Shown: one piece after another, positions 5,040 to 46,405 of the stretch | Layout of the letters: each line of letters begins with the position of its first letter | Numbering within the stretch: position 1 is the stretch's first letter | Origin: an uncultured Bacteroidales bacterium | GTDB lineage: Bacteria > Bacteroidota > Bacteroidia > Bacteroidales > S143-33 | DNA: 64,000 nucleotides | NCBI GenBank assembly: GCA_964649975.1 | Contig: CAZYSM010000010.1 | Span: 1,964-65,963 of the forward strand | Direction: 5' to 3' | Notes under the pieces: model-generated | Seen by the model: the letters and a program-made list of their open reading frames with translations, nothing else | The model's database searches: none | What the model was told of the DNA's origin: nothing | Made by a program: the position numbers and the translations under genes

Positions 5040-7166
5040 TTATTGCCCGGGCTGCTGTTGCGGAGGTTGCTGCCCAGTAGAATATGGATTAACCAAAATC
5101 TTGGCTTCCACACGTCTATTCAAAGCCCTGCCCTCGGGTGTGGAGTTTGGAGCAATAGGCTTGGTCGGGCCATAACCCTTAGCCACAAGACTTTCGGGCG
5201 GAACACCCTGGGAAATAAGGTATTGAACAACAGCCTCTGCACGGCGCTGGGATAATTTCATATTATACTGGAACGAACCTGTATTGTCAGTATGTCCAGA
5301 TATTTCCACAACAATACCAGGATAACGTTTGAGTATCTCGGCCAGACGGTTAAGCTCGGCATAAGATTCTGGTTTAAGCGTTGCACTGTTCACGTCAAAG
5401 AATACATTACGCAATACCACTTTGGAACCCGGGTCAATAGACATCAGCTGTATGTCTTTGTGTATTTCCTGATAACCTGTAGCTGCCGGGATGTCAAAGT
5501 TTTCGGAGTAAAACATGTGTCCCGGAGCATTAACCGACATTCCATAATTCTTACCCGAAGGCAACATTACCATATATTCGCCAGTGGTAGCGTTGGTCTT
5601 TATTACCTGAACAACCTTCTGTGTTTCATTATCCACAATTTCAATAGTAGCATCAAGCGGTTTATTTGTTCCGTATTCCGATACAATACCTTTGACAACA
5701 GTCAGACGTAATGTCTTAATTGGCACTGGCGCTTCCATAGTAATCTCATTGACCGGACGGTTTTCAAATGCCAGAAGGCTATGATCGGCGTCCTGAGTAA
5801 AAATCGGTTTGGGTGTATAGAAGAAGAAATCATAAACGTCATAATCACCGTATCCGTCATGACCATTGGAAGTGAAATAGCCAGTGCGTCCATCAGCATT
5901 AACGTAAATAAATAGATCATCGCCAGGAGTGTTTATCCCAAATCCAAGGTTTTCTGGCTCTGTCCAGCGTCCGTCAGGCAAACGATAACACCGGAAAATA
6001 TCATATCCGCCCATGGAGTTGTGTCCCTTGGAAGCAAAATATAATACACTGTCATTCTGAGCAATAAAAACGGATTCCTCGTCATAAGGCGTATTGATTT
6101 CCGGACCAAGATTCTTGGGCTTAGACCACCCCATAGCAGTACGTTTGGTAACCCAGATATCTTTTCCTCCGTATCCGCCAGGACGGTCGCTAACGAAAAA
6201 TACCATTGTTGAATCGTGAGAAAAAGTTAATGTTGTCTCTTTACTGCCTTTACGGTTAATTTTCCTGATAACTTCCTTGGGCTTGCTCCACTTTTCATCG
6301 CCATTGGCTTTAATCCTTTTCTTGGCAATATAGAATGTTCCTTTTCCGTCTCCGCGACGGATAATAATTTCTGTACCATAAGGATTAATGGCTACTGAGG
6401 CATCATTACCTTTACTATTAACGGGTTTTGGGAAAAGTGCTGGTTTATGCCACACTCCGTTCTTATAACTTGTATAGTAAATATCCTCGTAATAATCATC
6501 CGAGACATAAACATTCCTTCGGGAATTAAACTTGGAAGGACGGCGAGAAGTAAAGTAAACAATAGAGTCATAAGGTGCAAAAACAGGAGAATATTCCGCA
6601 TATTCGCTATTAACATTTTTCCCGAGATTAGTAATAATTACATTTAACTTTTTCTTTTTCAGTTCATTACCATTATTACACTGCTGAATATACCTCTCTA
6701 TCATAGCCTCTTTTTTCTTCAAAGCCTTCTCGTCCAACGAATTCTTATAAAGGAGATATTCATCAATAGCATCATCAAATTTTGCATTAAGATGATATGC
6801 CCTACCCAACCACAGGTGGATATCAGGTGTAACCTCAGGATTGAGGTCAAAAGCTTTTTCAATATATTTCTCTCCTTCCTTCTCATAGCCTAATTTCAAA
6901 TAGCTAATGCCCATCTCATAAAGCAATGGAGCATAATCCTGATTGTATCTATAAGCCTGTTTAAGCTCATCCAGAGCCATACGATAATCACCGTGACGAT
7001 TTTTTCTGAAATACCTGGTTCCTTTTTTCAGATGTTTCAGGGCCTGTTTATATCCAGCTTCGGTAACCAGAAAATCTTTGGGATTAATTTTTACTTTATA
7101 AGGTTTCTGACCAATTAAACTTAAAGTAATAGCCAGGGACAAAACAAAACTTATAAGTCTTTTCAT
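5040..7166 (-). CDS. OmpA-family outer-membrane/peptidoglycan-associated protein with TPR, TolB-like beta-propeller repeats and a CarboxypepD_reg-like domain
   Basis: Signal peptide and N-terminal TPR-like repeats are present. PD40/WD40-like repeats are visible (YFTSRR, FFVSDRPGGYGGKDIW, YFASKG, YFTSNG). The C-terminal OmpA domain reads ISGHTDNTGS...NMKLSQRRAEAV...NRRVE. Confidence 0.85.
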   Translation of the reverse strand: MKRLISFVLSLAITLSLIGQKPYKVKINPKDFLVTEAGYKQALKHLKKGTRYFRKNRHGDYRMALDELKQAYRYNQDYAPLLYEMGISYLKLGYEKEGEKYIEKAFDLNPEVTPDIHLWLGRAYHLNAKFDDAIDEYLLYKNSLDEKALKKKEAMIERYIQQCNNGNELKKKKLNVIITNLGKNVNSEYAEYSPVFAPYDSIVYFTSRRPSKFNSRRNVYVSDDYYEDIYYTSYKNGVWHKPALFPKPVNSKGNDASVAINPYGTEIIIRRGDGKGTFYIAKKRIKANGDEKWSKPKEVIRKINRKGSKETTLTFSHDSTMVFFVSDRPGGYGGKDIWVTKRTAMGWSKPKNLGPEINTPYDEESVFIAQNDSVLYFASKGHNSMGGYDIFRCYRLPDGRWTEPENLGFGINTPGDDLFIYVNADGRTGYFTSNGHDGYGDYDVYDFFFYTPKPIFTQDADHSLLAFENRPVNEITMEAPVPIKTLRLTVVKGIVSEYGTNKPLDATIEIVDNETQKVVQVIKTNATTGEYMVMLPSGKNYGMSVNAPGHMFYSENFDIPAATGYQEIHKDIQLMSIDPGSKVVLRNVFFDVNSATLKPESYAELNRLAEILKRYPGIVVEISGHTDNTGSFQYNMKLSQRRAEAVVQYLISQGVPPESLVAKGYGPTKPIAPNSTPEGRALNRRVEAKILVNPYSTGQQPPQQQPGQ

Positions 7167-7245
7167 TTTTCAATTGTTTTCATATTCATTTTTACAAATA
7201 TTAAAAAAAAATCTATCAAAGGCAACCGGGCATAAAACCTTTTAT

Positions 7246-8076
7246 TTAGAAATTTATTTTTGTTTTAGCCTTTTTTTTGGGTGCAAAAGGCGTTTTATTA
7301 ATAATTTCTTCTCTTTTATCAAGGTTACCTTTTTTGTATTCATCATAAATTTGCTTGATGATAATAACAAGGTCATATTGAGGGGTGCGTAAGATAAAAT
7401 CCCTGTCAAAATTCAGGAAATCCATAAATTTCTCCAGTTCTTTTCCTTTCAGGCCAGTAATAGTGCTAACCAGCTGAGGGTTAAACTTTTCTTCAATACG
7501 TTTTTCCATCTCAGAATATTTTTCCATTTTCTTTATCTTGGCCAACTCTTTTTCATACTTAGTCTTTCCGCCAATTACAAAGCCCACGCCACGTGAGGCA
7601 ATGGTCAAGGCCTGCAAATCCTCTTTACTTATGGCTTTATCCACCCATACTTTAAGCTGTTCCTGGGTTTTATCTTTTTCTACTTTTGTATGTGCTATCT
7701 GATAAACAAAAGTTTTCCATCTAACAGCAAAAACATCCACAGCTGGCAACCTGTAATAACGCCGATTCATATATATAACTGTGTTAAAATGACGGGACTG
7801 GGGATGCTTATCCGCAATGGTCCAATAAACAGGCTTATATCCCAGACACGAAATACGCAAACTATCCTTCTTGGTCATTGTTATAAGAAAACGACCTGCT
7901 GTATCTGATTGCGTTGAATTACCTTTTTTTATATTGACTATCAAGGCATAAGGAACTGGCTTCTTGGTATCTTTATCCAGAATCTGACCCGAAACATAAT
8001 AAACTCTCTGCCAGAACTGGGCAAAACTCATCTGCCATATCAAAATCAAAATCAAGATACTTATTAACCTGCGCAT
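7246..8076 (-). CDS. Hypothetical secreted protein with an N-terminal carboxypeptidase-regulatory-like domain
   Basis: Signal peptide MRRLISILILILIWQMSFAQ, followed by the pattern VSGQILDKDTKKPVPYALI...TQSDTAGRFLI. The C-terminal half is Lys/Glu-rich and helical. Confidence 0.5.
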   Translation of the reverse strand: MRRLISILILILIWQMSFAQFWQRVYYVSGQILDKDTKKPVPYALIVNIKKGNSTQSDTAGRFLITMTKKDSLRISCLGYKPVYWTIADKHPQSRHFNTVIYMNRRYYRLPAVDVFAVRWKTFVYQIAHTKVEKDKTQEQLKVWVDKAISKEDLQALTIASRGVGFVIGGKTKYEKELAKIKKMEKYSEMEKRIEEKFNPQLVSTITGLKGKELEKFMDFLNFDRDFILRTPQYDLVIIIKQIYDEYKKGNLDKREEIINKTPFAPKKKAKTKINF

Positions 8077-8167
8077 AACAATATTGTTTTATTTATTGCA
8101 AAAAAAGAATGTTTTTTTTATTATAGCAAATAACACTTAGACTGTGTGAATATATAAAAATTTTCCA

Positions 8168-9595
8168 ATGAACGAGATAAAATTTTTCTTTGACGGACGT
8201 CTGCAAACGATTGATTTCACCTCTATCAAGCCAACGACCACAGTTCTGGAATTTTTACGTTCTTATCCGGGACGATTTGGTACCAAAGAAGGGTGTAATG
8301 AAGGCGACTGTGGGGCTTGCACCGTGGTAATTGCACAACCAAACGGAAATAAGTTTGATTACCAGGCGGTTAACTCCTGTATGGTTTTTCTACCATATCT
8401 ACACGGAAAATTCCTTATAACAGTGGAAGACTTATCCTCACCCACACAATTACATCCTATACAGCAGGCTTTCATTGATAATTACGCCAGTCAATGCGGC
8501 TTTTGCACACCCGGATTTGAGATGTCGCTCTTTGCCTTATACAAATCTAATCCAAATCCCACGGAAGAAGAAATTTCCGAAGCAGTGGAAGGAAACCTGT
8601 GCCGGTGCACGGGTTACCGCCCTATCCGTGATGCAGCACTGTCATTACGGACAATGCCTTTGAAAGACCATATTACGGATACAGAGCCACAGGTTTTAGA
8701 GGCATTAAAAACAATTGATAATCCAGATGTTATAGATCTCTCATACAAGGATGAAAAATATTTTATTCCTTTTTCCCTGGAAAAAGCTCTGGATTTGATC
8801 AAGCAATATCCTGAAGCTAAAATAGTTAATGGCGCCACAGATGCTGCGCTCCTCAAAAACAAAAAGAAACAAGATTTACCATTAATAGTTGACCTATCCT
8901 TCATTAGTGAAATTTCATATATTGAAGAAAAGAATAGGGAAATCATAATAGGGGCAGGTGTACGTGTACAGCAATTAAAAGATTTCTCCCGGGATAAATT
9001 GCCTTTTCTCTATGACTATCTGAAAGTTTTTGCAGCAAAACAAATACGTAACCGGGCCAGTGTTGGAGGAAACATTATGACAGCCTCCCCCATTGGCGAT
9101 CTCATTCCTCCCTTCATCACTATGGATGCAAGCGTTGTTATAGCCAGCAGTAACGGAGATATTACAATGCCCCTGGAAGATTTTATCACAGGCTACCGCA
9201 GCACAGCCCTCAAACCTGGCCAAATCCTCAAACAAATCATTATCCCTGTTGACAACAAACGTTTTTACCGGTTTTACAAAGTATCCAAGCGTACAAGCCT
9301 GGACATCAGCACTGTTAGTCTTGCTGCCAGCATAGAAGCCGAGGGAAACACTGTCAAAGATATACGTCTGACTTACGGCGGAATGGCCGAAATGGTCAAG
9401 CGTGCCCGCAAAACAGAAGATTTCCTCCGTGGACAGGAAATTACAGAGGAAAATTTCCTGGCAGCTGCAAATATAGTGAAACAGGAATTCACTCCTATTT
9501 CTGATGCGCGTTCCTTTGCCCAGGCGCGTTCAATAATGGCTAAAAACCTACTCATAAAATTCTATCAGGATTTAACCCAAAACTCAAAGCAATGA
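8168..9595 (+). CDS. xdhA: Xanthine dehydrogenase small subunit (2Fe-2S plus FAD-binding)
   Basis: Two [2Fe-2S] cysteine clusters are present (GCNEGDCGACTV; CGFCTPG...CRCTGY). They are followed by an FAD-binding and CO-dehydrogenase-flavoprotein-like C-terminal region. A 4-nt ATGA overlap links it to xdhB. Confidence 0.85.
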   Translation: MNEIKFFFDGRLQTIDFTSIKPTTTVLEFLRSYPGRFGTKEGCNEGDCGACTVVIAQPNGNKFDYQAVNSCMVFLPYLHGKFLITVEDLSSPTQLHPIQQAFIDNYASQCGFCTPGFEMSLFALYKSNPNPTEEEISEAVEGNLCRCTGYRPIRDAALSLRTMPLKDHITDTEPQVLEALKTIDNPDVIDLSYKDEKYFIPFSLEKALDLIKQYPEAKIVNGATDAALLKNKKKQDLPLIVDLSFISEISYIEEKNREIIIGAGVRVQQLKDFSRDKLPFLYDYLKVFAAKQIRNRASVGGNIMTASPIGDLIPPFITMDASVVIASSNGDITMPLEDFITGYRSTALKPGQILKQIIIPVDNKRFYRFYKVSKRTSLDISTVSLAASIEAEGNTVKDIRLTYGGMAEMVKRARKTEDFLRGQEITEENFLAAANIVKQEFTPISDARSFAQARSIMAKNLLIKFYQDLTQNSKQ

Positions 9596-11892
9596 AACCT
9601 TTATATTACGAAAGTGCACGGCAAATAGTACAAGGGAAAGCCCGTTTTGTTGACGACATACCACCCTTTCACAGAGAGCTGAAAGCTTATATTGTAACCT
9701 CACCAGTTGCACGAGGACGGCTAAAAAGTTTTGATCTATCACAAGCCCGCGCTTATCCAGGTGTTGTTGCGGTACTCTCGCACAAAGACATTCCGGGAAG
9801 TAAAAAAATAGGCGTTGTGGAACACGACCAGCCTTTGCTGGTAGAAGACCAAATCAGCTATATGGGCGAGCCAATGTTCCTCATCGTTGCCGAAAGCTAC
9901 GAAGCCGCCCATAAAGCTGCAAAACTCATAAAAGCGGATATAGAACCAGAGGATCCTGTCATTACCATAGAACAGGCAATAGAAAAGGACTGGAAACTGG
10001 CCCCTTCCAAGAAAATAGAACGGGGGGATATAGACAAAGGCTTTGCACAGGCTGACCACATAGTAGAAGGAATTTTCCGCATAGGCGGACAGGAGCATTG
10101 GTATCTGGAAACGCATGCCGCCATTGCCGTGCCAGGAGAGGAAAACGAAATGAAAATTTATACCTCATCACAGCACCCCACGGAAAATCAACATATCATC
10201 GCCCAGGTGCTTGGAATTAATTTCAAGGACGTGGACGTGGAAGTACGCCGTCTGGGAGGTGCTTTCGGTGGCAAAGAAGCTCAGGCTTCGTGGTTTGCAG
10301 CACTGGCCGCTCTGGCTGCCTGGCATACTAAAAGACCTGTACGCCTGCGTCTGGAACGTATGCAAGACCAGGCCATCACTGGCAAACGTCATGCATTCCT
10401 GGTAAAATACAAGGTGGGATTTTCTGCCGAAGGCAAAATCATTGCGCTGGATATTGAACTAAACGGAAATGCAGGTGCTTACAAAGACCTGTCCATGCCT
10501 ATACTTGAACGGGCTATGTTCCACTCCGAAAATGCCTATTACATCCCCAACATCCGCATCATTGGTACCATGTGGCGCACTAACCTGCCTCCTAACACAG
10601 CTTTCCGAGGATTTGGCGGTCCGCAGGGAATAGCATCTATTGAAAACATTATCCACATCATTGCTCATAAATTGAAAAAAGACCCTACCATTATCAGAAA
10701 AATTAACTTCTATGACGAACAGCACAATGAAACGCCATACGGACAAAAAGTAGAAAATAACCGCTTGCATATCCTCTACGACCAGATTATATCAGAAGCC
10801 AGGTATTTTGAACGTAAAGAAGAAATTTCCCGTTTTAATTCCCAGCATAAATACCTAAAACGCGGACTGGCACTTATTCCTGTCAAATTCGGCATATCTT
10901 TCACAAACTCCATCCTTAATCAGGCAGGTGCTCTGGTAAATGTTTACACCGACGGAACAGTGCAGGTCAACCACGGTGGCATTGAAATGGGACAAGGCCT
11001 TTATACAAAAATCCTGGGTATAGCCTCAAAAGAATTTGGTATCAGCCCCGACCGCATTCGTATCACTGCCACGGACACCTCCAAAGTACCCAATACTGTT
11101 GCCACAGCAGCCTCCACAGGATCCGACCTCAACGGAATGGCTGTGGCAGATGCTATTGAAAAAATCAAACTCCGTATGGCTGTAGCCCTGAGCAATTATT
11201 TCAACCGTAATAGCACAAGTTCACGCCTGACCTATCCTTCGGATCTGGTTTTTGAAGATAATTACATCTATGATAGACAAAATCCGGAACGGCGTATTTC
11301 CTTTGCTGAGGCTGCTGCCTTAATGTTTACCTTGCAGGTTAGCATGAGTGCCACAGGATATTATCACACACCCGGAATATTTATGGATTGGGAGACAGGT
11401 AAAGGCCATCCGTTTTATTACTATTCCTTTGGCATGGGCGTTGTGGAGGTGGAATTGGACCTGCTCACCGGAAAAGCCAGGGTTATACGGGCAGACTTAT
11501 TGCACGATGTAGGCGAGAGCCTTAATCCGGAAATTGACCGCGGTCAAATAGAAGGTGCTTTTGTCCAGGGTATGGGTTGGACACTGCTGGAAGACCTGCG
11601 TTACACGCCCGATGGACGCTTGTTAAACAGCTCTCCGGATACTTATAAAATTCCGGCATACACAGATGCACCAGCAGAATTTAATGTAAAACTGCTCAAA
11701 GGCTTTCCGCAGCCTGGCACCATCCATCACAGCAAAGCCATTGGTGAACCTCCGTTCATGTATGGAATAGCTCCGTGGCTGGCTGTAAAAGATATTCTGG
11801 CAGAACTAACGGAATTTGAAAAAGAACCAGACCTGGAACTGCCAGCCACTAACGACAGAATAGTCCTTGAAGTGGAAAAATTAATGGCGTAA
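9592..11892 (+). CDS. xdhB: Xanthine dehydrogenase molybdopterin-binding subunit
   Basis: 766 aa with aldehyde oxidase/xanthine dehydrogenase a/b-hammerhead and Moco-binding signatures (GGAFGGKE, AFRGFGGPQG, GSDLNG, EPP). It is translationally coupled to xdhA. Confidence 0.88.
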   Translation: MKPLYYESARQIVQGKARFVDDIPPFHRELKAYIVTSPVARGRLKSFDLSQARAYPGVVAVLSHKDIPGSKKIGVVEHDQPLLVEDQISYMGEPMFLIVAESYEAAHKAAKLIKADIEPEDPVITIEQAIEKDWKLAPSKKIERGDIDKGFAQADHIVEGIFRIGGQEHWYLETHAAIAVPGEENEMKIYTSSQHPTENQHIIAQVLGINFKDVDVEVRRLGGAFGGKEAQASWFAALAALAAWHTKRPVRLRLERMQDQAITGKRHAFLVKYKVGFSAEGKIIALDIELNGNAGAYKDLSMPILERAMFHSENAYYIPNIRIIGTMWRTNLPPNTAFRGFGGPQGIASIENIIHIIAHKLKKDPTIIRKINFYDEQHNETPYGQKVENNRLHILYDQIISEARYFERKEEISRFNSQHKYLKRGLALIPVKFGISFTNSILNQAGALVNVYTDGTVQVNHGGIEMGQGLYTKILGIASKEFGISPDRIRITATDTSKVPNTVATAASTGSDLNGMAVADAIEKIKLRMAVALSNYFNRNSTSSRLTYPSDLVFEDNYIYDRQNPERRISFAEAAALMFTLQVSMSATGYYHTPGIFMDWETGKGHPFYYYSFGMGVVEVELDLLTGKARVIRADLLHDVGESLNPEIDRGQIEGAFVQGMGWTLLEDLRYTPDGRLLNSSPDTYKIPAYTDAPAEFNVKLLKGFPQPGTIHHSKAIGEPPFMYGIAPWLAVKDILAELTEFEKEPDLELPATNDRIVLEVEKLMA

Positions 11893-11930
11893 AAAAAAAC
11901 GGGGCGCTGTTAGGCGACCCCGTTTTTTTA
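11891..11930. terminator. Bidirectional rho-independent terminator (xdhB / valS)
   Basis: A9-ACGGGGCGC-loop-GCGACCCCGT-T7. The stem 11899..11904 pairs with 11918..11923, plus an inner CGC/GCG pairing. The A-run and T-run let it work on both strands. Confidence 0.8.
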
Positions 11931-11931
11931 T

Positions 11932-14601
11932 TTATTCAAGGAATAAGTCCATCAACTCAGTAATCTGCTCTTTCAAAGCTTTGAGCTTGGCCTCGGCACT
12001 TGCTTTTTTCTCCTTCTCCCTCTCCACAACCTTTGCAGGCGCTTTACTGATAAATTTCTCATTATTAAGCTTTTTCATCACAGAAGCCAGAAAACCTTTC
12101 TGATAATTATATTCCTCAATCAAATCCACAAGCTCCTTTTTAATATCTATCAAATCTCCAAGCGGAATATTATATTCAAGTGTTTTTATCATAAACACCT
12201 TTGCGCCTTTTATTTTTTCCTTAATTTGTTCAATATTCTCCACACCAGCTAATTTCTTAATTACCTCATCAAACACAGGATTATATTCACCTTCCATCAC
12301 ACGTACTTTCACACTTAATTTCTGCTGATTATCAATCTTATAATCTTTCCTTAGCCCACGGATAGTACTGATGATCTTCTTGGTATCCTCAAAAAGTTCC
12401 AGTAATTTTTCATCATACTCACCAGGCACGGGATAAGAGGCAATCATAATACTCTCACCATCTTTACGGTCATCCAGCTTTTGCCAGAGCTCCTCGGTAA
12501 CAAATGGCATAAACGGATGAAGCATTCTCAGCAGCTTATCAAAGAAAATGCGGGTAGCCTCAAAAGTTTCCTTATCAATGAAAGCTGCGTTACGGTTTTT
12601 GTCAAATTTAGGCTTAATTATTTCCAGATACCATGAAGCAAAATCATCCCAGAAAAGCTGATACAGTGTCATCAATATCTCGGAAAGCCGATAATTTTCG
12701 TACATTTGCTCGGTCTGATCCAATACTTTGTTAAGCTTGTTTTCAAACCACTGGATAGCAACTTTGTTAACCTGCGGCTGAGCGAGATTTTCATCCACCT
12801 CCCACATTGAAATCAAGCGAAAGGCATTCCATATTTTATTAGCAAAATTACGTCCTTGTTCAGGTAAATCATCCTTGTATAAAAGATCACCTCCGGCAGG
12901 GGCGCACGAAAGTATACCAAAACGCACACCGTCTGCACCGTATTTATCAATCAACTCCAGTGGGTCGGGCGAATTACCAAGCGACTTTGACATTTTACGT
13001 CTCAGGTTATCACGCACCAACCCAGTAAAATACACATCCTTAAATGGATAGGTGCCACGATAATGGTATCCTGCCATAATCATACGAGCCACCCAGAAAA
13101 AGATAATATCATGCCCAGTAACCAGTACAGTAGTAGGATAATAATAATTTATGTCAGGATTATCTGGATAGCGTATTCCGTCAAATACGGCAATGGGCCA
13201 CAGCCAGGAAGAAAACCAGGTGTCCAGCGTGTCAGGGTCTTGATGCAAATCATCCAATGTCAAGGATTTATCTCCGGTCTTTTCAATAGCCAACTGTAAA
13301 GCCTCTTCCTTGGTTTCTGCCACAACAAACTCCTCTGTATCACGGATATAATAAACCGGAATACGATGGCCCCACCATAGCTGACGAGAGATGTTCCAGT
13401 CGCGGATATTTTCCATCCAGTGGCGGTAAGTGTTTTTAAACATATCAGGAACAAAACGTATTTCCCCGTCCATCACAGCTTTGAGAGCGGGTTTAGCCAA
13501 CTCTTTCATTTTCAAGAACCACTGTCTGGACAGGCGTGGCTCAATTGGCACATCTGTACGCTCAGAAAAACCAACGTTATGAGTGTAATCTTCCTCCTTG
13601 ACAAGCAGACCGCGCTTGCGTAATTCCTCTACAATGAGTTTTTGCGCTTCCTCACGGCTTTTGCCAACAAAGAACTGAGCCTGCTGGTTAAGTGTAGCAT
13701 CCTCATTGAAAATATCTATAATTTCCAATCCATGACGCAGGCCTATTTCATAGTCATTAGGGTCATGGGCAGGTGTAATCTTTAAAGCGCCAGTACCAAA
13801 CTCAGGGTCAACATAATCATCTGCAATAACCGGTACCTCACGTTCTACCAGCGGAACTATTACTTTTTTCCCAATGAAATCCTTATAACGTTCATCGCCA
13901 GGATTAACTGCTACAGCAGTATCTGCCAGGATAGTTTCCGGACGTGTAGTTGCAATAACAATGTATTTATCTTCCTCACCCACAACAGGATATTTAACAT
14001 ACCATAGCTTACCTGGAACCTCTTTGTATATAACTTCTTCATCACTAATAGAAGTCTTAGCCTCAGGGTCCCAGTTAACCATACGGTATCCACGGTAGAT
14101 GAGACCTTTGCGGTAAAGGTCAACAAATACTTTAATAACGCTCTGATAATAATGGTCATCCAGGGTAAAATTAGTACGATCCCAGTCGGCAGAAGCACCG
14201 AGCTTACGAAGCTGTTTAAGTATTATACCGCCATGCTCATGTGTCCATTCCCAGGCATGTTTGAGGAATTCCTCACGTGTGATCTGGGATTTTTCAATGC
14301 CCTGTTTTTTAAGCTTGGCAACAACTTTAGCCTCTGTTGCAATAGAAGCGTGGTCTGTACCAGGCACCCACAGGGCATTATAGCCCTTCATCCTGGCATG
14401 ACGCACCAGAATATCCTGTATAGTGTTGTTAAGGATGTGTCCCATGTGTAGCACGCCTGTTACATTAGGCGGGGGTATGACAATAGTATAAGGCTTACGT
14501 TCATCAGGCTCAGAATGGAAAAGCTTTTTTTCCATCCAGTAATTATACCATTTTTCCTCAATCTGCTGCGGTTCAAACTTCTTAGGCAAATTCTTGTCCA
14601 T
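11932..14601 (-). CDS. valS: Valine--tRNA ligase
   Basis: Class I HIGH motif (LHMGHILN) and KMSKS motif are present. The 889-aa length and the C-terminal coiled coil are typical of ValRS. Confidence 0.97.
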   Translation of the reverse strand: MDKNLPKKFEPQQIEEKWYNYWMEKKLFHSEPDERKPYTIVIPPPNVTGVLHMGHILNNTIQDILVRHARMKGYNALWVPGTDHASIATEAKVVAKLKKQGIEKSQITREEFLKHAWEWTHEHGGIILKQLRKLGASADWDRTNFTLDDHYYQSVIKVFVDLYRKGLIYRGYRMVNWDPEAKTSISDEEVIYKEVPGKLWYVKYPVVGEEDKYIVIATTRPETILADTAVAVNPGDERYKDFIGKKVIVPLVEREVPVIADDYVDPEFGTGALKITPAHDPNDYEIGLRHGLEIIDIFNEDATLNQQAQFFVGKSREEAQKLIVEELRKRGLLVKEEDYTHNVGFSERTDVPIEPRLSRQWFLKMKELAKPALKAVMDGEIRFVPDMFKNTYRHWMENIRDWNISRQLWWGHRIPVYYIRDTEEFVVAETKEEALQLAIEKTGDKSLTLDDLHQDPDTLDTWFSSWLWPIAVFDGIRYPDNPDINYYYPTTVLVTGHDIIFFWVARMIMAGYHYRGTYPFKDVYFTGLVRDNLRRKMSKSLGNSPDPLELIDKYGADGVRFGILSCAPAGGDLLYKDDLPEQGRNFANKIWNAFRLISMWEVDENLAQPQVNKVAIQWFENKLNKVLDQTEQMYENYRLSEILMTLYQLFWDDFASWYLEIIKPKFDKNRNAAFIDKETFEATRIFFDKLLRMLHPFMPFVTEELWQKLDDRKDGESIMIASYPVPGEYDEKLLELFEDTKKIISTIRGLRKDYKIDNQQKLSVKVRVMEGEYNPVFDEVIKKLAGVENIEQIKEKIKGAKVFMIKTLEYNIPLGDLIDIKKELVDLIEEYNYQKGFLASVMKKLNNEKFISKAPAKVVEREKEKKASAEAKLKALKEQITELMDLFLE

Positions 14602-38716: not shown

Positions 38717-41305
38717 TTAGTTGCGGAATACCAGATGGTCGTTTTCCACGTCAATGATGATTGGCTTAGCGCGGTCAACCTCGTCGGCAATGAGCTTCTT
38801 AGCAAGCTCATTAAGCACTTCACGCTGCATAACACGGCGTATCGGACGGGCACCAAAGACCGGATCATATCCAACACGTGCAACCCAGTCAATAGCTGCA
38901 TCAGTCATCTCAGCCTCAATATTCTGTTCTTTGAGCAGTTTACGGATACGGTTAAACTGCAGCATAACAATTTCGCGTACCTGTTCGCGTGAAAGCGGTT
39001 TGAACATTATAATCTCGTCCACACGGTTAATGAATTCCGGCGGCAGAGTGGTCTTGAGCAAGTCCAGAACGCGGTCTTCTGTCTCCTGCAGCACTTGTTC
39101 GCGGTTATCATCACGCAGCCGCTTAATGGCATCCAGGATATAGTGTGAACCGAGGTTAGATGTCATAATTATGATAGTGTTCTTAAAGTCCACGGTACGG
39201 CCTTTGTTATCAGTCAAGCGGCCATCATCAAGCACCTGCAGAAGGATATTAAACACGTCTTTATGGGCTTTTTCAATCTCATCCAACAGGATAACGGAAT
39301 AAGGACGTCTGCGCACTGCCTCAGTAAGCTGTCCGCCTTCTTCATAACCCACATATCCTGGAGGCGCACCAATAAGACGGGATACACTATGACGTTCCTG
39401 GTATTCGGACATATCAATACGTATCATAGCCTTTTCGTCATCAAACAGCGCCTCAGCCAGAGCTTTTGCCAGCTCGGTTTTACCAACACCCGTAGAACCA
39501 AGGAAAATGAAAGACCCAAGCGGACGGTTCTGGTCAGCCAATCCGGCACGGCTACGGCGCACAGCATCAGCCACAGCACGGATAGCTTCGTCCTGACCAA
39601 CAACGCGCTGGTGCAATACCTCCTCCAGGTGCAATAATTTCTCTTTCTCGGTCTGCATCAGCTTGCTCACCGGAATACCGGTCCAACGGCTAACAACCTC
39701 AGCAATATCCTCATAGTCCACTTCCTCGCGGATAAGCGGATTTTCACCCTGTACCTTTTTCAGTTCTTCCTGCAGTTGTTCAATTTCTTTCTGTGCCTGC
39801 GGAATACGGCCATAACGCAGCTCGGCTACGTAGTTGAAATTACCTTCGCGTTCGGCTTTTTCGGCTTCAAACTTAAAACGTTCAATATCTTCCTTGAGCT
39901 TTTGTATTTTGGTCAAGATGTCTTTTTCCATCCGCCATTTGGCCTCCAGTTCGGAACGTTTCTGCTTGAGTTCAGCAATCTTTTCCTCAATAACCTTTAG
40001 CCGATCGCTGTGCTTATCTTTGACCAGAGCAGCACGTTCTATTTCCAGCTGACGGATCTGGCTATCCAGTTCATCAATAGGAGCAGGCACGGAATCCATT
40101 TCCAGACGCAGCTTAGCAGCAGCTTCATCAATAAGGTCAATAGCCTTGTCGGGCAAATAACGGTCGGTAATGTAGCGGATACTCAGATCCACGGATCCAA
40201 TAATAGCGTCATCAGTAATACGCACTTTATGGTGATTTTCGTAGCGCTCTTTCAGTCCACGCAAAATAGCGATAGCAGCGGCACGGTCTGGCTCGTCCAC
40301 CATAACCTTCTGGAAACGACGTTCCAGAGCCTTGTCTTTTTCAAAATATTTCTGGAATTCGTCCAGAGTAGTAGCACCAATAGCGCGTAATTCTCCACGA
40401 GCCAGAGCAGGCTTAAGGATATTAGCAGCATCCATAGCACCCTGACTACGTCCTGCTCCCACGAGAGTGTGTATCTCGTCAATGAATAGGATTATCTCTC
40501 CATCGGACTGAACTACTTCCTTGACCACAGATTTAAGACGTTCCTCAAATTCGCCCTGATACTTAGCACCAGCAATCAAAGCTCCCATATCCAGAGCGTA
40601 TATAGTCTTGGTTTTGAGGTTTTCAGGCACCTCTCCTTTTACAATACGCTGAGCAATACCTTCTACAATAGCAGTTTTACCCACGCCAGGGTCACCAACG
40701 AGTACCGGGTTGTTCTTGGTACGGCGCGAGAGTATTTGCAATACACGACGTATTTCCTCATCACGTCCGATAACCGGGTCAAGTTTGCCTTTCTGAGCCT
40801 GTTCGTTAAGGTTTATAGCGTATTTGGACAGAGCCTGATAAGTTTCTTCGGCGGTTTGCGAAGTAACTTTCTGTCCTTTACGCAAATCTTTAATAGCAGC
40901 CCGGAGTTCCTTTTCGGTCACTCCAGCATCCTTCATAGCCTGGGATACCTGGTCATTAGCCAGAAGTATTCCCAGGATAATATACTCCAGAGAAGCATAT
41001 TCATCCCCGTCCTTTTTGGACTGGTTAATAGCCTCGCGCAGGGCAAAAGAAGCCGAATTGGACAGATAAGGTTCTCCTCCCTGCACACGGGGATAGGAAC
41101 TAATAATACTATCCAGGACACGCCTGAAGTTTTCCAGATTCACTCCTAACTTTTTAAACAAAAAGTTAGGCACATTTTCATCAGTTTCAAAAACAGCCTT
41201 AAGCAGGTGGCCGTTTTCAATAGCCTGATGCCCATATCCCTGGGCAATAGTAAAAGCGTGTTGTATAGCTTCTTGAGCTTTTATTGTGAAGTTATCAAGT
41301 TTCAT
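38717..41305 (-). CDS. clpB: ATP-dependent chaperone / disaggregase ClpB
   Basis: Two AAA+ modules ([17 protein letters not shown]; [20 protein letters not shown]) flank the long coiled-coil middle domain. Trimmed to ATG 41305 ([18 protein letters not shown]), which is preceded by AGGAGG. Confidence 0.97.
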
Positions 41306-41313
41306 AGGCAATT

Positions 41314-41319
41314 CCTCCT
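41314..41319 (-). promoter_or_regulatory. Shine-Dalgarno-like AGGAGG 8 nt upstream of the clpB ATG
   Basis: The minus strand reads AAAAAAGGAGGAATTGCCTATG. None of about 10 other gene starts I inspected in this window has a comparable purine core. Confidence 0.5.
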
Positions 41320-41438
41320 TTTTTGTTTTGTCACCCCAAAAGAACAAAATCCTTGCCCAAAGAACCGGAAAACACAACATACTGATTTACAAAACAATAA
41401 AAAGCAAAACTAGACTGTCAAAATGTCAGCAAAACAAT

Positions 41439-41468
41439 AAAAAAAGCGGGACTAACCGTCAGTCCCGC
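41439..41468 (-). terminator. Rho-independent terminator ending the 46405-41500 two-gene unit
   Basis: On the minus strand: GCGGGACT, a 7-nt loop, AGTCCCGC (a perfect 8-bp stem, 41446..41453 with 41461..41468), then T7. Confidence 0.75.
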
Positions 41469-41499
41469 TTTTCAGCAATCATATCAAGAACATTCTCCA

Positions 41500-42366
41500 T
41501 CACTTACAGAAAGAATCAAAGAAATCGGTGAAAATTCTTAAAAATCCGGTAGTTGCAAGGATATAAAAAATCAGGTTAAGGATGAATAAAATCCAGATCA
41601 CGGTTTTAGCGCCAGTAATTTTTTTACGGTTGTTCTCTACTTTTTCGTAAAGCTCTTCCTGAGCAATCAATACCTGATTGATTTTTGTGAGTATCTGGTC
41701 GGTCTGGTCAGCAGTAAAATCCTTAACGTTTTTCTCAGCCTCATTAACCCGTGTATTAAGAGATGATAGCTTATTATCAATATTATCCAGGCGCTTAGGG
41801 AAATTAACGCTCTCAATAACCTGTGTAAGCTGTGCGGTTTTCTCAGCTAATTCCAGATAACTTTCCAGTACTTTTTGTTCCTTTTCCAGATTTTTCTGAT
41901 GTTCTTGAGCAACACTATCCAGGGATTTTACGGACTTATTGGTATATTCCTCCAAAAGCTTACGCTGCTTATCCAGGGTGGTATTAACCTCGCTAACAAG
42001 CTTATCTACCAATTTTTTATTATCAGCCACAACAGTATCAACGACTTTTTTGACCAGATCCTCGCTCTGGGCAGAGAGCTCAGAAAATTTGGATAAAATT
42101 CCTTCTTCCTCTTTCAGTCTTTCCTGAAAGGCCATAAAAAGCTTGGTAAGATTCTCCTCAGTGAGCTTGTAAGTTTTGTTCATATAATCCGAGACCAGGC
42201 TCTGCAACTTTTTTAATACATCAGAATATTTTTCGGTAAGGTTCTGCCCTAATTCCACAACATCCTTGCTCAATTTACCAGCGTGCGCAATTTGTTCCGA
42301 AGCACTTTTGAGCTTTTTAAGCTCTTCCTGCAATTTAAGCAGCTCAATATTTATCTGCTCAATCAT
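41500..42366 (-). CDS. Tail-anchored coiled-coil protein, unknown function
   Basis: 288 aa. About 255 aa show heptad-like, Lys/Glu/Leu/Gln-rich helical sequence. A single C-terminal TM helix follows (TVIWILFILNLIFYILATTGFL). There is no signal peptide. The start lies 13 nt after the stop of the 1341-aa gene. Confidence 0.6.
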   Translation of the reverse strand: MIEQINIELLKLQEELKKLKSASEQIAHAGKLSKDVVELGQNLTEKYSDVLKKLQSLVSDYMNKTYKLTEENLTKLFMAFQERLKEEEGILSKFSELSAQSEDLVKKVVDTVVADNKKLVDKLVSEVNTTLDKQRKLLEEYTNKSVKSLDSVAQEHQKNLEKEQKVLESYLELAEKTAQLTQVIESVNFPKRLDNIDNKLSSLNTRVNEAEKNVKDFTADQTDQILTKINQVLIAQEELYEKVENNRKKITGAKTVIWILFILNLIFYILATTGFLRIFTDFFDSFCK

Positions 42367-42379
42367 AATTTCTTTAGTT

Positions 42380-45300
42380 TTAGGTTAAATCAATAAATTG
42401 TTTATTAAAATCCCTTAACCAGGATGTAAATATTTTCAGATGGAAAAGTTTTTCCACTTTGGCTTTAAGTTCAAAGTTATAATTTTCAAGTGTAAATAAC
42501 AATCCATCAATTCTCTCAATGAATTTTTCCACATCAGCATCATAGGTTTTCCTCCACAAATTCAAAGCCATAGCCATATCATCCAGCGCCTGAGAAATCT
42601 TAGCTTCATCATTCTCATTAATAATCAACCCAGCCCATCCACGCATTAATAGTGCTACGTAATCTCCAGGGTTCTGCTGCAACAAAATATCAGCGGTATT
42701 ATATAAATGTTTAAGATTGGATTTAAAAATTCCCACCTTCTGGATAAAATAGTCAATAATTTTAATCCAGTCCTGCTTAACTGCTTTTTTACGTTCTTCC
42801 AGGTCAAAAATATATTTAGCCCTGAAATAATTAGAAATAATGTATTTACACCGCTGCACATCCCCGTTTTGCATAAAGGTATCAATCATACGCGAAAGGT
42901 CAGATATAGCTTCATATCTACGAGGAATAATATAAGTGTATTCAAAAGAAATCCAGTAATTAAGCACTTTTTGCACAAATGTATCGCCTTTAAATCCAGG
43001 CACTTTCTGAAAAGTCTCCAATGCTTTTTCCTTGGAGACAAAAGTTAAAATACGTTTATAAATCCGGTGCAAATATTTATCATCGGAAAGCTTACGCAAT
43101 TTGATAACAAAATGACGGCTGCGGAAATCAATAATATAATCTTCGGCCAATCCTACAACCAGTAAATAATAGATCAAACGGTATGTATCGTCAAAAGTGC
43201 GCAAGCGCAAGAAAATCTCTTCTAATTTATCTTTGTTCTTACGGACAAATTTTTTATCAGTATACAGGAGGATAAAATCGTAAAAAGTCTCTAAATCGGG
43301 ATTTGCCAGTATCATACGGTTAAAATCCTCACGTGAAATTTTATCCTTACCTGCAAGCTTTACCAGATCGTCATAAATATCATTTGTAAAATCCACAATA
43401 ATACTGGCGGTTTCGTCTTCTTTCATATTAACCAGACGGGAAATAATGGTTTCGGAAGGCGTCTCCACTGTTTCATCCATAATCAGCAGAAAGTCCTGGG
43501 GTCTGGCAACAACCTGCCTTATTTCATAATCAATGAATGCAAGGATATTATCAGCAAGTTTTTTCTTGAGCGCACTGGCCTGATTATCAATAGTATTTTC
43601 TTTAAGATTAATTACACCAAGAATATCCTCCTGGTCATAGACATACAAAGAAGTAGGTGTTTGCTCAGGTTGAGGTTCAAGGGAGACCCATATTCCAAAA
43701 ATCTGATAAACACGTTTAATCAGAATATCTTTAACCGTATCTTTTGGCGAATTAGCCAGCTTGAGAATTTCCTCTACAAGCAAAAAATCTTTTTTTACAT
43801 TTCCGTGCATAGAGGAAAAAAAGCGGCTGGCAACATATTCCTCATAAGGAATTTCCCGTGTTTGTCTGATGGCAACCGGTTCATTACCGGAAATAATATA
43901 TTGTTTCTGGTCAAAATACACGCGGCGTGAGGAAAAAACAAAATTTATTCTTGCTGGCTGCATATCCCTGCCAACCCTCTGGAACAGATATAACAAATCG
44001 GTCATCCCCATAGGGAAGGAAACCACATTAAGATTGTGTATATCTTTTGCATCCAGACCAAAAACAAAATTTCTATTGGCAATAAGCAGATCATCCTCAC
44101 TATCAACAAACTGGCGAAAATGTTCATAAGCCTCCACACTATGACGTGTGTAGAGAGAAGCCGTACCAGAAACAGGCCTATCATTAAATAAAAACAAATC
44201 CTTCTTTACCTTATTAAATAAATTATCGTAATAAAAATCTGGCTTAAGAGTATATATAACAGACTTCTCATCCAGCAAATCATTATCTATCAATAAGTTA
44301 ATTTTATCCTGCTCAACTTTTTCCTCGTCTAATTTGTCCAATGGGACAACATTATCCTGATTATCCTTATATAAAACCACATCAATATTTTCCAGAGGAA
44401 AGACCTCAGAGAAAATATTGTCCTGGGAAATATCCAAAAACAGCTTAACATCTTCGGTGGCATCATAATCAATACCAGAGCTAAGAGCAAGAATTACAGC
44501 ATTTTCAGAACCTGGTAAAAACTTTTTCACATTGTTGCCCAGGCTGTAATAAGCATAATTAAAAGAGGAAGACCAGGAACTAAGGCTCTGTGCCTGGTCC
44601 ACAACAACTGTTGTAAAAAATCCTCCTTTACTTTCAAAAAGTTTTAGATCACTACGGAAATCATTAGAATGGAAAGCTTCGGCAGTGATAAAAACAAATA
44701 AAGCCGAGGCAGAAGCAAATAATTCCCGTCTATGGCGGCAATCATAAACATCATAATAATTCAGGCAAATATACGACACAGCATCAATGCGGAACTCCCG
44801 CAATTTATCCAGCTGATTTAACAGTGCAGGAACAAGCGGTTCCACGATAAGAGCGAATCCAGGACGGAATAAAGCAACTATCTGATAAAGAAGGGTTTTC
44901 TCAGCCACAAAAGAAAAATCTGCCATAGTATTATGCCCCGAGAGTGCCGAGGAAAGGACTTTCATCTGATAGGGATCCAGTATCTGGCGGCGGAAAATAT
45001 TCTTTATGAAATAAAAGAAACTTTCCCTTACTTTTTCCACACGTTCCAGATCGTCCTTGGCAATATTTTCGCCTGGCACAAAGGATTGATATTTCACAGG
45101 TTCAGCTGCGAGGAAAGTCCTATCAGCCTCAATATTACGAGAGGACCGCACTATGGCAAGATTTTCGGAAGCTGTATCAATCTTTTCAACATCCAGGCCT
45201 TTATAACGCAATAGAGAACTGTCAATGACCAGGTCATATTGTTTTGTTGGGTCAAATTCCTCAATCAAAAATTTCTCACCCTGGTAAAGGATATTCAAAG

Positions 45301-46405
45301 CAGCCTCTTCAAATTCCTGGTCATAATATATTTCCAGATGCACCTGAGGGAAATTGCGTCGCACCCCAGCCAGATGGAAAAGATTGTTGAATTTCATAGA
45401 AAGGTCCTGCACAGCCAAAAAAGCCCCAGGTACATCACGTTCAATAACAGCAATATTCCACTCCCCGGCGTTCAAATCCAATTTTCCGGCAAGGATATAT
45501 TGCAGGATAACACGCTGAATGCGCGCTACTTCAAAAGGTGTCAGAGCTATTTGCAATGCATCCATTCCGTAGGCATTGCCATAAACAGGTCGTTCGTAAT
45601 TTTTTCGGACTTCCTCAAAATACTGATTATAAGAAAAATCCACCAGTGGCGCATAATCAATCTTATTGGAATAAAAATCCGACTGTTTCAGATACAGAAT
45701 CCTGCCCCACCCTATATTTGACAGCATCCACGATCTGGAATCATAATCCATTATCTCAGGCCCTTCCACAAGTTTTTTTTCTATTTCAATAGCTAATCCG
45801 CGATACTGATTATCCTCAGCATAAGGCACTTCCAGGACAAAATCCATTGAAGTGTCAATAACCCGGCGTCCCAGAGCCTGATAATAATCTTTGAGTGAAT
45901 GTCTCTTCAAGATTGACAGAAAACTATGGTCAGCATCAATCAGTTGCAGTAAATAATCGCCCACATAGGAAGGGACAGTCTGAAACAAAAATTTCTTTTT
46001 CAAATCAGCTTCAGGGTCATCCTCAAAAGTATAAATCTTCTGAAGGTCATTGGTAGTTATACGCGGATCTATGATATGAAGTGCCCGGAAAATTTCCTCT
46101 TTCAGTTCGTCATTAACAAATGGATATGAGAAAACTCCCCTTTTGTCAACTTGCTTTTTTGTTTTGAAAAAAGTAGCAGAAATAATTTCTTCAATAAAAG
46201 TAGGAGCCAATGTAGGCAGCCCACGAGAAATCAAATTATGGATTACCACAGGGAAAGGGTCATTAGATATGGGGGACAAATCCTGTCCTGCGGCATCAAG
46301 ATCAAAATAAGACAAGTGTTTAATTAAAGCTTCCACGTATTCTCTCTGAGAACCAGCAAACAAAGAAGGTAAAGCCTCAAGAATATATCCTGCTTGCAAT
46401 TGCAT
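42380..46405 (-). CDS. Giant (1341 aa) RecQ-like SF2 pseudo-helicase protein, with an uncharacterised N-terminal region and a long helical C-terminal region
   Basis: Residues ~472-830 align motif by motif with the RecQ helicase core:
- LDPYQ...LSG.
- P-loop position FSFVAEKTLLYQIVAL.
- IVEPLVPALLNQ.
- Walker B VVVDQAQSLSSWSSSFNYAY.
- ALSSGI.
- LFQRVGRD.
The remainder matches no family I recognise. Confidence 0.75.
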   Translation of the reverse strand: MQLQAGYILEALPSLFAGSQREYVEALIKHLSYFDLDAAGQDLSPISNDPFPVVIHNLISRGLPTLAPTFIEEIISATFFKTKKQVDKRGVFSYPFVNDELKEEIFRALHIIDPRITTNDLQKIYTFEDDPEADLKKKFLFQTVPSYVGDYLLQLIDADHSFLSILKRHSLKDYYQALGRRVIDTSMDFVLEVPYAEDNQYRGLAIEIEKKLVEGPEIMDYDSRSWMLSNIGWGRILYLKQSDFYSNKIDYAPLVDFSYNQYFEEVRKNYERPVYGNAYGMDALQIALTPFEVARIQRVILQYILAGKLDLNAGEWNIAVIERDVPGAFLAVQDLSMKFNNLFHLAGVRRNFPQVHLEIYYDQEFEEAALNILYQGEKFLIEEFDPTKQYDLVIDSSLLRYKGLDVEKIDTASENLAIVRSSRNIEADRTFLAAEPVKYQSFVPGENIAKDDLERVEKVRESFFYFIKNIFRRQILDPYQMKVLSSALSGHNTMADFSFVAEKTLLYQIVALFRPGFALIVEPLVPALLNQLDKLREFRIDAVSYICLNYYDVYDCRHRRELFASASALFVFITAEAFHSNDFRSDLKLFESKGGFFTTVVVDQAQSLSSWSSSFNYAYYSLGNNVKKFLPGSENAVILALSSGIDYDATEDVKLFLDISQDNIFSEVFPLENIDVVLYKDNQDNVVPLDKLDEEKVEQDKINLLIDNDLLDEKSVIYTLKPDFYYDNLFNKVKKDLFLFNDRPVSGTASLYTRHSVEAYEHFRQFVDSEDDLLIANRNFVFGLDAKDIHNLNVVSFPMGMTDLLYLFQRVGRDMQPARINFVFSSRRVYFDQKQYIISGNEPVAIRQTREIPYEEYVASRFFSSMHGNVKKDFLLVEEILKLANSPKDTVKDILIKRVYQIFGIWVSLEPQPEQTPTSLYVYDQEDILGVINLKENTIDNQASALKKKLADNILAFIDYEIRQVVARPQDFLLIMDETVETPSETIISRLVNMKEDETASIIVDFTNDIYDDLVKLAGKDKISREDFNRMILANPDLETFYDFILLYTDKKFVRKNKDKLEEIFLRLRTFDDTYRLIYYLLVVGLAEDYIIDFRSRHFVIKLRKLSDDKYLHRIYKRILTFVSKEKALETFQKVPGFKGDTFVQKVLNYWISFEYTYIIPRRYEAISDLSRMIDTFMQNGDVQRCKYIISNYFRAKYIFDLEERKKAVKQDWIKIIDYFIQKVGIFKSNLKHLYNTADILLQQNPGDYVALLMRGWAGLIINENDEAKISQALDDMAMALNLWRKTYDADVEKFIERIDGLLFTLENYNFELKAKVEKLFHLKIFTSWLRDFNKQFIDLT

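Follow-up and report, generated by a model that had tools for sequence, protein, structure and literature searches.

What remains useful in a helicase once its ATPase motifs have degenerated? This question is raised by a gene on the reverse strand of a 64,000-nucleotide stretch of DNA from an uncultured Bacteroidales bacterium (GenBank assembly GCA_964649975.1, contig CAZYSM010000010.1, positions 1,964 to 65,963), hereafter called the window. The gene is a 4-kb open reading frame (ORF) whose 1341-residue product has a RecQ-type helicase core without the catalytic residues of a helicase. Our answer, to which we give a probability of roughly 0.6, is that the protein is a catalytically disabled member of a helicase-nuclease family, domesticated and kept as a non-motor scaffold in a two-gene operon. 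The features of the ORF and its core are the following.

42380..46405, reverse strand: 1341-residue ORF with an N-terminal module, a degenerate RecQ-type helicase core and a C-terminal domain (ORF call and homologues)
43856..45010, reverse strand: RecQ-type superfamily 2 (SF2) helicase core of two RecA-like lobes with degenerate ATPase motifs, residues 466-850 (homology and motif columns)
44894..44917, reverse strand: Walker A remnant FSFVAEKT, residues 497-504, canonically M/L-P-T-G-x-G-K-S/T (alignments)
44588..44599, reverse strand: Walker B or DExH remnant DQAQ, residues 603-606 (alignments)
43961..43984, reverse strand: motif VI FQRVGRDM, residues 808-815, with both arginines retained (family alignment, conserved columns)

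A RecQ-type core with degenerate ATPase motifs

A first-pass annotation of the window had claimed a RecQ-type core for residues 472-830 (43916..44992), and its coordinates for this span and for the two Walker remnants were all exact to the base. Profile matches confirm the assignment. The NCBIfam models recQ (TIGR01389; E=1.3e-19, residues 468-696) and recQ_fam (TIGR00614; E=8.9e-18) both match the protein, the latter with 64.3 bits, which does not reach its curated cutoff of 219.8. Human RECQ1 (7a8r) is matched at E=2.2e-10 and E. coli RecQ (1oyw) at E=2e-7, while DpdF-type RecQ-like profiles of PADLOC cover both RecA-like lobes (E=7.5e-20, residues 466-848). The RecQ family, represented by the E. 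coli and human proteins, provides the closest sequence relatives of the core and resembles it in how motifs 0, I, Ia, II, III and VI are ordered and spaced, as well as in the W/F of the aromatic-rich loop.

The segments that had been named as RecQ motifs fall under these motifs in a formal HMMER alignment to RECQ1 as well: 'fsfvaeKTllYQ' is aligned with 'mptgggKSlcYQ' (motif I), 'ivePLvpallnQ' with 'vicPLislmedQ' (motif Ia), 'vvvDqaqslssWsssF' with 'iavDevhccsqWghdF' (motif II) and 'lalssg' with 'gltata' (motif III). Motif VI, FQRVGRDM, was placed against Q-E-x-G-R-x-G-R-D by a family alignment of 120 sequences. In a pairwise BLASTP comparison with an intact relative, lobe 1 alone aligns (30% identity, E=8e-24), lobe 2 being too diverged.

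The window protein has the two lobes of an SF2 core, and its motifs 0-VI follow one another in the order and at the spacing of RecQ. It has neither the G-x-G-K-[ST] of Walker A nor the DExH of Walker B, their places being taken by FSFVAEKT and DQAQ. There is no glycine at all in its P-loop, and glutamate (E502) replaces the glycine preceding the lysine. In P-loop nucleoside triphosphatases a glycine is required at this position so that the phosphates can be held by backbone amides. The RecQ C-terminal region (zinc-binding Cys4 and winged helix) gave no profile match in the window protein or its intact relatives; RecQ profile matches end at model positions 213-223 in the former and at about 335-354 of 470 in the latter, and the 200 residues after motif VI hold 0-2 cysteines, with no CxxC, cysteine cluster or zinc finger.

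The degenerate state within its clade

A protein search returned 437 homologues (E <= 1e-3), mostly of 1310-1430 residues. Motifs were surveyed in the best 120 of the 437, which have 1310-1428 residues and for the most part cover the whole query. The majority of these listed members carry L-P-T-G-x-G-K-S-L-x-Y-Q, D-E-A-H-C-x-S-E-W-G-H-D-F-R, L-T-A-T-A-S and Q-E-x-G-R-x-G-R-D. The window protein belongs to a clade of 14 (P0001-P0014, 39-100% identical) from which the P-loop glycines are absent and in which [ED]-K-T is found in 13 members and D-Q in 11; motif VI reads R-x-G-R-D in 13 of the 14 and R-A-A-R-D in one.

The degenerate state is a conserved, derived character of the clade. The comparison of homologues proposed in the first-pass annotation thereby finds it clade-wide, down to 39% identity, and not a lesion private to this genome. 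That annotation had read both glutamines of DQAQ as replacements of the Glu and His of DEAH. The glutamine at the Glu position is the one that holds (11 of 14), but the fourth position is not conserved and may be Q, E, G, D, H or S.

The proteins with a degenerate P-loop form one large clade in a neighbour-joining tree, which is a distance-based sketch, and subclades then lost different motifs. One subclade has kept DEAH, its Lys-Thr and motif VI being gone; a sister clade has kept G-x-G-K-T, with DEAQ and no motif VI; and P0015 has a degenerate P-loop (PFTASKT), yet retains DEAH and RGGRD. The intact members P0076 and P0053 exceed the curated recQ_fam threshold with 253 and 240 bits, unlike the window protein, and the score falls stepwise through P0029 (217), P0036 (197), P0015 (155), P0018 (126) and P0077 (72) to the 64 bits of the window protein.

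Selection on the gene pair

The ratio of non-synonymous to synonymous substitution rates (dN/dS, omega) was calculated against an 89%-identical orthologue, L001 (gene at 10001..14026).

Whole gene: 0.098
N-terminal module: 0.056
Helicase lobe 1: 0.105
Helicase lobe 2: 0.150
C-terminal domain: 0.086
Partner gene: 0.049

Purifying selection, which the first-pass annotation had expected from such a measurement, is borne out by an omega of 0.10 for the gene as a whole and of 0.11-0.15 for its core; other dead lineages do not exceed 0.17. Compared with a 99.7%-identical relative (L089), the gene has 23 nucleotide differences, 19 of them synonymous, and all four amino-acid changes lie within the helicase core. 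Low omega together with changes confined to the core indicates a fold that is maintained but is the least constrained part of the protein.

The distribution of constraint differs from that in intact members. Within the window clade, mean identity is 0.53-0.60 in the N-terminal domains vs 0.44 and 0.40 in the helicase lobes, an order that is reversed among intact members (lobes 0.52 and 0.47, N-terminal 0.38-0.42). Dead pairs have a ratio of helicase to N-terminal dN of 1.05-5.3 and intact pairs one of 0.39-1.02, and between the window protein and L001 the dN of the core is five times that of the N-terminal module.

Conservation in at least 90% of intact members singles out 85 columns of the core; in the window clade 34 of them are unchanged, 9 now conserve a different residue and 42 are variable. 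The variable columns include P-loop G/T, the Glu and His of DExH, T-A-T of motif III, the motif V Thr and the motif VI Gln. Retained in the clade are Q480 (motif 0), K503, P523 (motif Ia), D603, W611 and F615 (aromatic loop), R810 and R813, the conserved motif VI residues being R810, G812, R813 and D814. Purifying selection thus acts on the helicase fold, on its positions in motif Ia and the aromatic loop, and on the domains that flank it.

Two observations concern the recent history of the core. Five of the 23 differences from L089 (overall base difference 0.47%) fall within 20 nucleotides at and after the Walker B remnant (44576..44599, codons 603-610) and yield three of the four amino-acid changes, A605T, S607I and S610P; the 'SLSS' that follows Walker B in the window is an outlier, other clade members having [IMF]-S-P. 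Similar clusters of single-nucleotide differences occur elsewhere in the 10-kb comparison with L089, which makes small recombination tracts a likely cause. In addition, dS against L001 is uneven (N-terminal 0.34, lobe 1 0.92, lobe 2 0.71, C-terminal 0.58, partner 0.35), a hint that the helicase part is of mosaic or recombinant origin.

Domains flanking the core

45011..46405, reverse strand: N-terminal module, residues 1-465, family-defining and the best-conserved part in the window clade (AlphaFold2, profile search)
45626..45895, reverse strand: Vsr/DUF559/MTES_1575-type restriction-endonuclease-like subdomain, about residues 171-260, catalytically degenerate here (Pfam matches in relatives)
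45770..45799, reverse strand: nuclease motif remnant GLAIEIEKKL, residues 203-212, in intact form G-x-x-[IV]-E-[IV]-D-G-x-Q-H
45434..45442, reverse strand: E322-R323-D324 at the end of a beta-strand ('WNIAVIERD'), invariant or nearly so across the family, dead lineages included
42383..43855, reverse strand: mostly helical C-terminal domain, residues 851-1341 (AlphaFold2)

The N-terminal 470 residues were modelled by AlphaFold2 with a predicted local distance difference test score (pLDDT) of 92 and a predicted template modelling score of 0.92. A Foldseek search of the model against the PDB gave no significant match, VRR_NUC being the only recognisable, weak resemblance, and the N-terminal profile found nothing significant among PDB sequences. 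Relatives were more informative: among 37 family members, Pfam matches to MTES_1575, DUF559 and DUF2726 were obtained in 16, 13 and 5, respectively, and the weak resemblance to VRR_NUC is consistent with such a nuclease-like subdomain. The N-terminus of the window protein has no Pfam match and lacks the E-x-D-G-x-x-H type motif of the Vsr-like/DUF559/REase_MTES_1575 nucleases; scaffold residues of the nuclease fold (D188-F, P194-Y and G203) are retained. In alignments the nuclease motif is wholly lost from other dead clades. The P0036 group, located next to rpoBC, combines a dead nuclease motif with an intact helicase, which suggests that the nuclease was lost first.

According to the predicted structure, E322-R323-D324 sits in a Rossmann-like alpha/beta domain that follows the nuclease-like subdomain. 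The C-terminal domain of about 490 residues, which in the family ends with W-x-x-x-F-N, was modelled with a pLDDT of 91 and has no structural relatives in Foldseek searches (best E=0.17 against the PDB, 0.09 against the viral models of BFVD). No Foldseek match below E=0.06 was obtained with either flanking-domain model.

The membrane partner and the operon

41500..42366, reverse strand: partner gene, 13 nucleotides downstream of the big ORF, encoding a 288-residue coiled-coil protein with one C-terminal transmembrane helix
41545..41601, reverse strand: predicted transmembrane tail anchor of the partner, VIWILFILNLIFYILATTG, residues 256-274 (Kyte-Doolittle 19-residue mean 2.20)
41441..41473, reverse strand: intrinsic terminator-like hairpin with a 15-bp stem and a T-run, after the partner gene and before clpB, closing the two-gene operon

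Over the first 230 residues of the partner, the Kyte-Doolittle 19-residue mean is at most 0.36. The protein matches no Pfam or NCBIfam family, and its PADLOC matches to ZorA, LmuB and JetC are weak, at the level of coiled coils (E ~1e-3), and probably compositional. No terminator-like site lies between the big ORF and the partner gene. Of eight loci from other clades that were inspected, seven have a homologous partner of 163-304 residues with a transmembrane tail downstream of the big gene, and these partners share the motifs M-x-E-Q-I-N-x-E-L and [VI]-[ND]-F-P-x-R-L.

A wider sample came from a scan of 185,579 genomes, one per species, in which the E-R-D strand pattern was the query. It yielded 87 relatives, with 74 full-length loci among them. 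A downstream ORF with a hydrophobic C-terminal tail is present in 66 of the 74; six are cut by the contig end and two are without such an ORF. In many intact members the partner ORF overlaps the big gene by 8-35 nucleotides. L005/L011 (P0015) and L063 are the only full-length members with downstream room but without the partner there.

Size, mobility and neighbourhood of the family

An exhaustive HMMER search with the N-terminal profile gave 882 clusters at 50% identity, 457 of them at E <= 1e-30, and in nearly all of them the module occupies residues 1-460, the whole protein having about 1300-1500. The window protein has everything that marks the two-gene family, namely the module with W-x-I-[AG]-[VI]-[IV]-E-R-D, the RecQ-like core, the C-terminal domain and the tail-anchored partner. 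Of the 118 full-length representatives compared, 79 still have all three of Walker A, Walker B and motif VI, and 39 have lost at least one of them. Loss of ATPase motifs co-occurs with loss of the nuclease motif: the latter is kept or lost in 63/16 of the ATPase-intact representatives vs 6/33 of the others (odds ratio 21.7, p=2e-11, without correction for phylogeny).

Intact cassettes with 73-78% identity have only the partner gene in common, even across phyla. Examples are L037 (Flavobacteriales), L039 (Competibacteraceae, Gammaproteobacteria) and L040 (Bacteroidales), which are intact and 73% identical, with the big gene at about 7001..11215 in each and no common flanking genes. Such similar cassettes in distant hosts without common flanks point to horizontal transfer across phyla. 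Neighbours of intact members comprise GmrSD, HsdR/HsdM, Type III methylases, ResIII helicases, AbiEii-like ATPases, HEPN proteins, toxin-antitoxin pairs, reverse transcriptases and integrases. By their surroundings, intact members look like a mobile defence-type cassette.

Dead or nuclease-dead lineages, for their part, retain flanking genes at 47-62% identity, with 12 of 19 flanking ORFs in common between L002 and L010, 7 of 7 between L026 and L038 and 7 of 13 between L007 and L020. In a census that counts protein families and not single proteins, the commonest neighbours of dead members are of housekeeping type, namely M16 peptidase, ClpB, UvrA, holA, Der, TrmD, SpoU, NIF3 and OmpA-like families.

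Most carriers are metagenome-assembled genomes labelled 'Bacteroidales bacterium'. Intact members also occur in cultured species, namely Phocaeicola massiliensis DSM 17679, Bacteroides gallinarum DSM 18171 and Ancylomarina longa, and other carriers are labelled Cloacimonadota, Ignavibacteria, Calditrichaceae, Chlorobiota, Beckwithbacteria and 'archaeon'. A subgroup from gut Bacteroidaceae (L067, L069, L072, L074 and L076; Phocaeicola, Paraprevotella and rumen Bacteroidales) has 1735 residues, about 330 more than the rest. This subgroup, which includes the protein of P. massiliensis DSM 17679, carries intact L-P-T-G-G-G-K-S and D-E-V-H-C. The same motif strings are found in L084 (B. gallinarum DSM 18171), where the 1518-residue ORF is cut short by the end of the contig.

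The most diverged intact pairs, those among L037, L039 and L040, show an N-terminal dN of 0.29-0.33 vs 0.10-0.17 in the helicase core. Their N-terminal omega is 0.24-0.28, so that the N-terminus evolves two to three times faster than the core, the opposite of the dead lineages. Other intact pairs have a smaller N-terminal excess or none (helicase to N-terminal dN ratio 0.58-1.02). Rapid N-terminal evolution in the L037/L039/L040 pairs would fit a role in recognising a target or partner under diversifying pressure.

Discussion

The reading that we prefer can be put as follows. A protein of this family consists of an N-terminal module into which a Vsr/DUF559-type nuclease fold is built, a RecQ-type SF2 core and a helical C-terminal domain, and its gene shares a two-gene operon with that of a small coiled-coil membrane protein with a tail anchor. 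The intact pair acts like a mobile cassette, often located beside restriction-modification or other defence genes, and its product is presumably a membrane-tethered helicase-nuclease. In the window lineage, the cassette would have become fixed in the chromosome of an uncultured Bacteroidales, and after fixation the nuclease motif and the residues for ATP binding and hydrolysis would have been lost. The dead core may now serve as a rigid scaffold, and probably as a surface for binding nucleic acid, by which the conserved N- and C-terminal domains and the membrane partner are held together. A mobile helicase-nuclease cassette thus appears to have turned into a fixed, non-enzymatic chromosomal gene pair. 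Its core is most likely no longer a motor and would have lost ATP binding as well, since all P-loop glycines are gone, an acidic residue precedes the lysine and the coupling motifs have been released.

Reuse of dead helicase folds as scaffolds is already known from RecC and AddB, in which a dead helicase fold, together with a dead (RecC) or live (AddB) nuclease fold, serves as scaffold or scanner of single-stranded DNA (PMC4614115). In the window protein, as in RecC, folds of the helicase and nuclease type are both kept under selection without their catalytic motifs, so that it answers to the description of a pseudo-helicase: the fold is kept, the catalytic motifs are lost and selection is purifying. 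Unlike the SF2, RecQ-type window protein, RecC and AddB are of superfamily 1 type and are complexed with an active motor (RecB/RecD or AddA), where the window protein has a membrane-anchored coiled coil as its partner, and no sequence relationship connects them with it.

Several points weigh against our reading. No RecB-like motor subunit was found beside the window gene or in its operon, and the analogy with RecC therefore does not go beyond the principle. The loss of ATP binding is a conclusion that we infer from sequence comparison, and a defence role of intact members is what their gene neighbourhood suggests. K503-T504, D603 and both motif VI arginines are retained across the window clade, and the clade-wide conservation of E-K-T, D-Q and R-x-G-R-D shows that the old pocket still matters and is constrained for something. 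It may belong to a nucleotide-locked clamp, which we rate as quite improbable, or to a self-liganded network of salt bridges by which the two lobes are fixed. PADLOC is without a model for the two-gene system and returned only generic DpdF/PsyrT/Cas3-like helicase matches; no description of the two-gene architecture was found in a literature search that included recent systematic defence-discovery papers.

The first-pass annotation had suggested a non-hydrolysing helicase fold acting as scaffold, sensor or clamp, with reference to the Walker B Glu-to-Gln exchange that in other ATPases allows binding but blocks hydrolysis. A non-motor role has proved to be the right class of explanation, but the reading as a fold that binds ATP without hydrolysing it is not supported. 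A nucleotide-locked clamp or sensor would agree with K503-T504, D603, Q480, R810 and R813 being conserved in the clade well above the domain average and with the Glu-to-Gln exchange in 11 of the 14 members, and AddB, which retains Walker A and B and binds ATP without hydrolysis, gives a precedent for a dead helicase fold that does so (PMC4614115). It is nevertheless quite improbable in view of a P-loop that has lost every glycine and has Glu or Asp before the lysine in 13 of 14 members, and of the variability of motif III, the motif V Thr and the motif VI Gln. Nor does the pattern look like a design for ATP binding: the 42 of 85 core columns released in the clade include ATP-contacting and coupling positions, and sister clades have lost the Lys-Thr or both motif VI arginines, yet keep the protein. 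That the core might still be an active ATPase or helicase by way of an unorthodox nucleotide site, for which the Lys-Thr, the Walker B Asp and the arginine fingers could be cited, seems to us very improbable, given the loss of the catalytic Glu and His of DExH, of all P-loop glycines and of motif III, and a recQ_fam score of 64 bits against a cutoff of 219.8, where intact relatives reach 240-253.

Two further explanations concern the gene pair as a whole. The pair could still be an immune system in which catalysis is dispensable, the big protein acting as non-enzymatic sensor or decoy and the membrane partner as effector. The partner is indeed retained in all dead clades under strong selection, intact relatives stand in defence-type neighbourhoods, and with about one third of the family degenerate, dead forms are evidently viable. 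Vertical inheritance at fixed housekeeping loci, as seen in the dead lineages, is unusual for defence genes, however; no defence or mobile genes are among the most frequent neighbour families of these lineages, and the N-terminal omega is only 0.06 here vs 0.24-0.28 in the most diverged intact pairs, so that we consider this explanation doubtful. A recently inactivated copy drifting towards a pseudogene is hardly credible. In its favour, the core is the fastest-evolving part, with a dN five times that of the N-terminal module and all four amino-acid differences from the 99.7%-identical relative, but the 4-kb frame is open, omega is 0.10-0.15, 19 of 23 differences are synonymous, and the degenerate state and the length are conserved down to 39% identity. 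Clade-wide motif conservation and low dN/dS refute this possibility, in agreement with the first-pass annotation, which had seen no decaying pseudogene in the open frame.

Beyond the scaffold that we favour, a more far-reaching and in our view unlikely proposal may be mentioned. The intact cassette would be a new, widespread membrane-tethered helicase-nuclease immune system with the invariant N-terminal E-R-D domain as its true centre of sensing or effector action, and the window lineage its domesticated, doubly dead descendant. Here E502-K503-T504, D603-Q604 and R810-x-G-R813-D814 would form a self-liganded pocket, in which the glutamate replaces the phosphate and bridges the lysine and the arginine fingers. 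The RecA lobes would thereby be locked in the ATP-like closed state, as a static DNA clamp at the membrane.

Known systems with RecQ-like helicases do not accommodate the family. Unlike RecQ, the window protein has a 465-residue N-terminal and a 490-residue C-terminal domain and a membrane partner. DpdF and PsyrT/RqlH are its best PADLOC matches by way of the RecQ-like core, and their flanking domains differ from those of the window protein. Identity with DpdF was rejected, as intact relatives score 125-165 bits against an equivalog cutoff of 550 and no dpd genes are nearby. PsyrTA/RqlHI was likewise rejected: PsyrT matches at 5e-7 over part of lobe 1, and the adjacent gene encodes a coiled-coil transmembrane protein, not PsyrA. 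Zorya consists of ZorAB with a coiled-coil tail and the helicase-nuclease ZorD. By analogy, intact members would likewise pair a coiled-coil membrane component with a helicase-nuclease effector. Membership in Zorya was rejected on account of the weak matches, a partner with one transmembrane helix and no MotA/ExbB-type channel, and the absence of ZorB/C.

What would be new here is a dead scaffold of RecQ type, and a helicase and a nuclease that are dead together while an obligate membrane partner is retained; the literature search found neither a described RecQ-type dead-helicase scaffold nor a case of helicase and nuclease dying together with such a partner kept. The family of 882 clusters has two confidently folded domains without structural relatives, and no description of the system was found in Pfam, PADLOC or the literature. 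Its graded series, from intact members through nuclease-dead, helicase-intact members to differently decayed helicase-dead clades, amounts to a natural experiment on usefulness after catalysis, and it is possibly a case of the domestication of an immune cassette.

Further observations on the window

Rfam models at gathering threshold gave no match in the whole 64-kb window (no tRNA, rRNA or riboswitch). On an orthologous contig, neighbouring proteins carry Por_Secre_tail domains of the type IX secretion system, which fits a Bacteroidota host. Downstream of the terminator-like hairpin, the ClpB ORF of the window (38717..41380, reverse strand, 887 residues) begins 25 codons upstream of the conserved N-terminus; the orthologue at L001 has 862 residues, and the start of the window ClpB is therefore probably an internal ATG.

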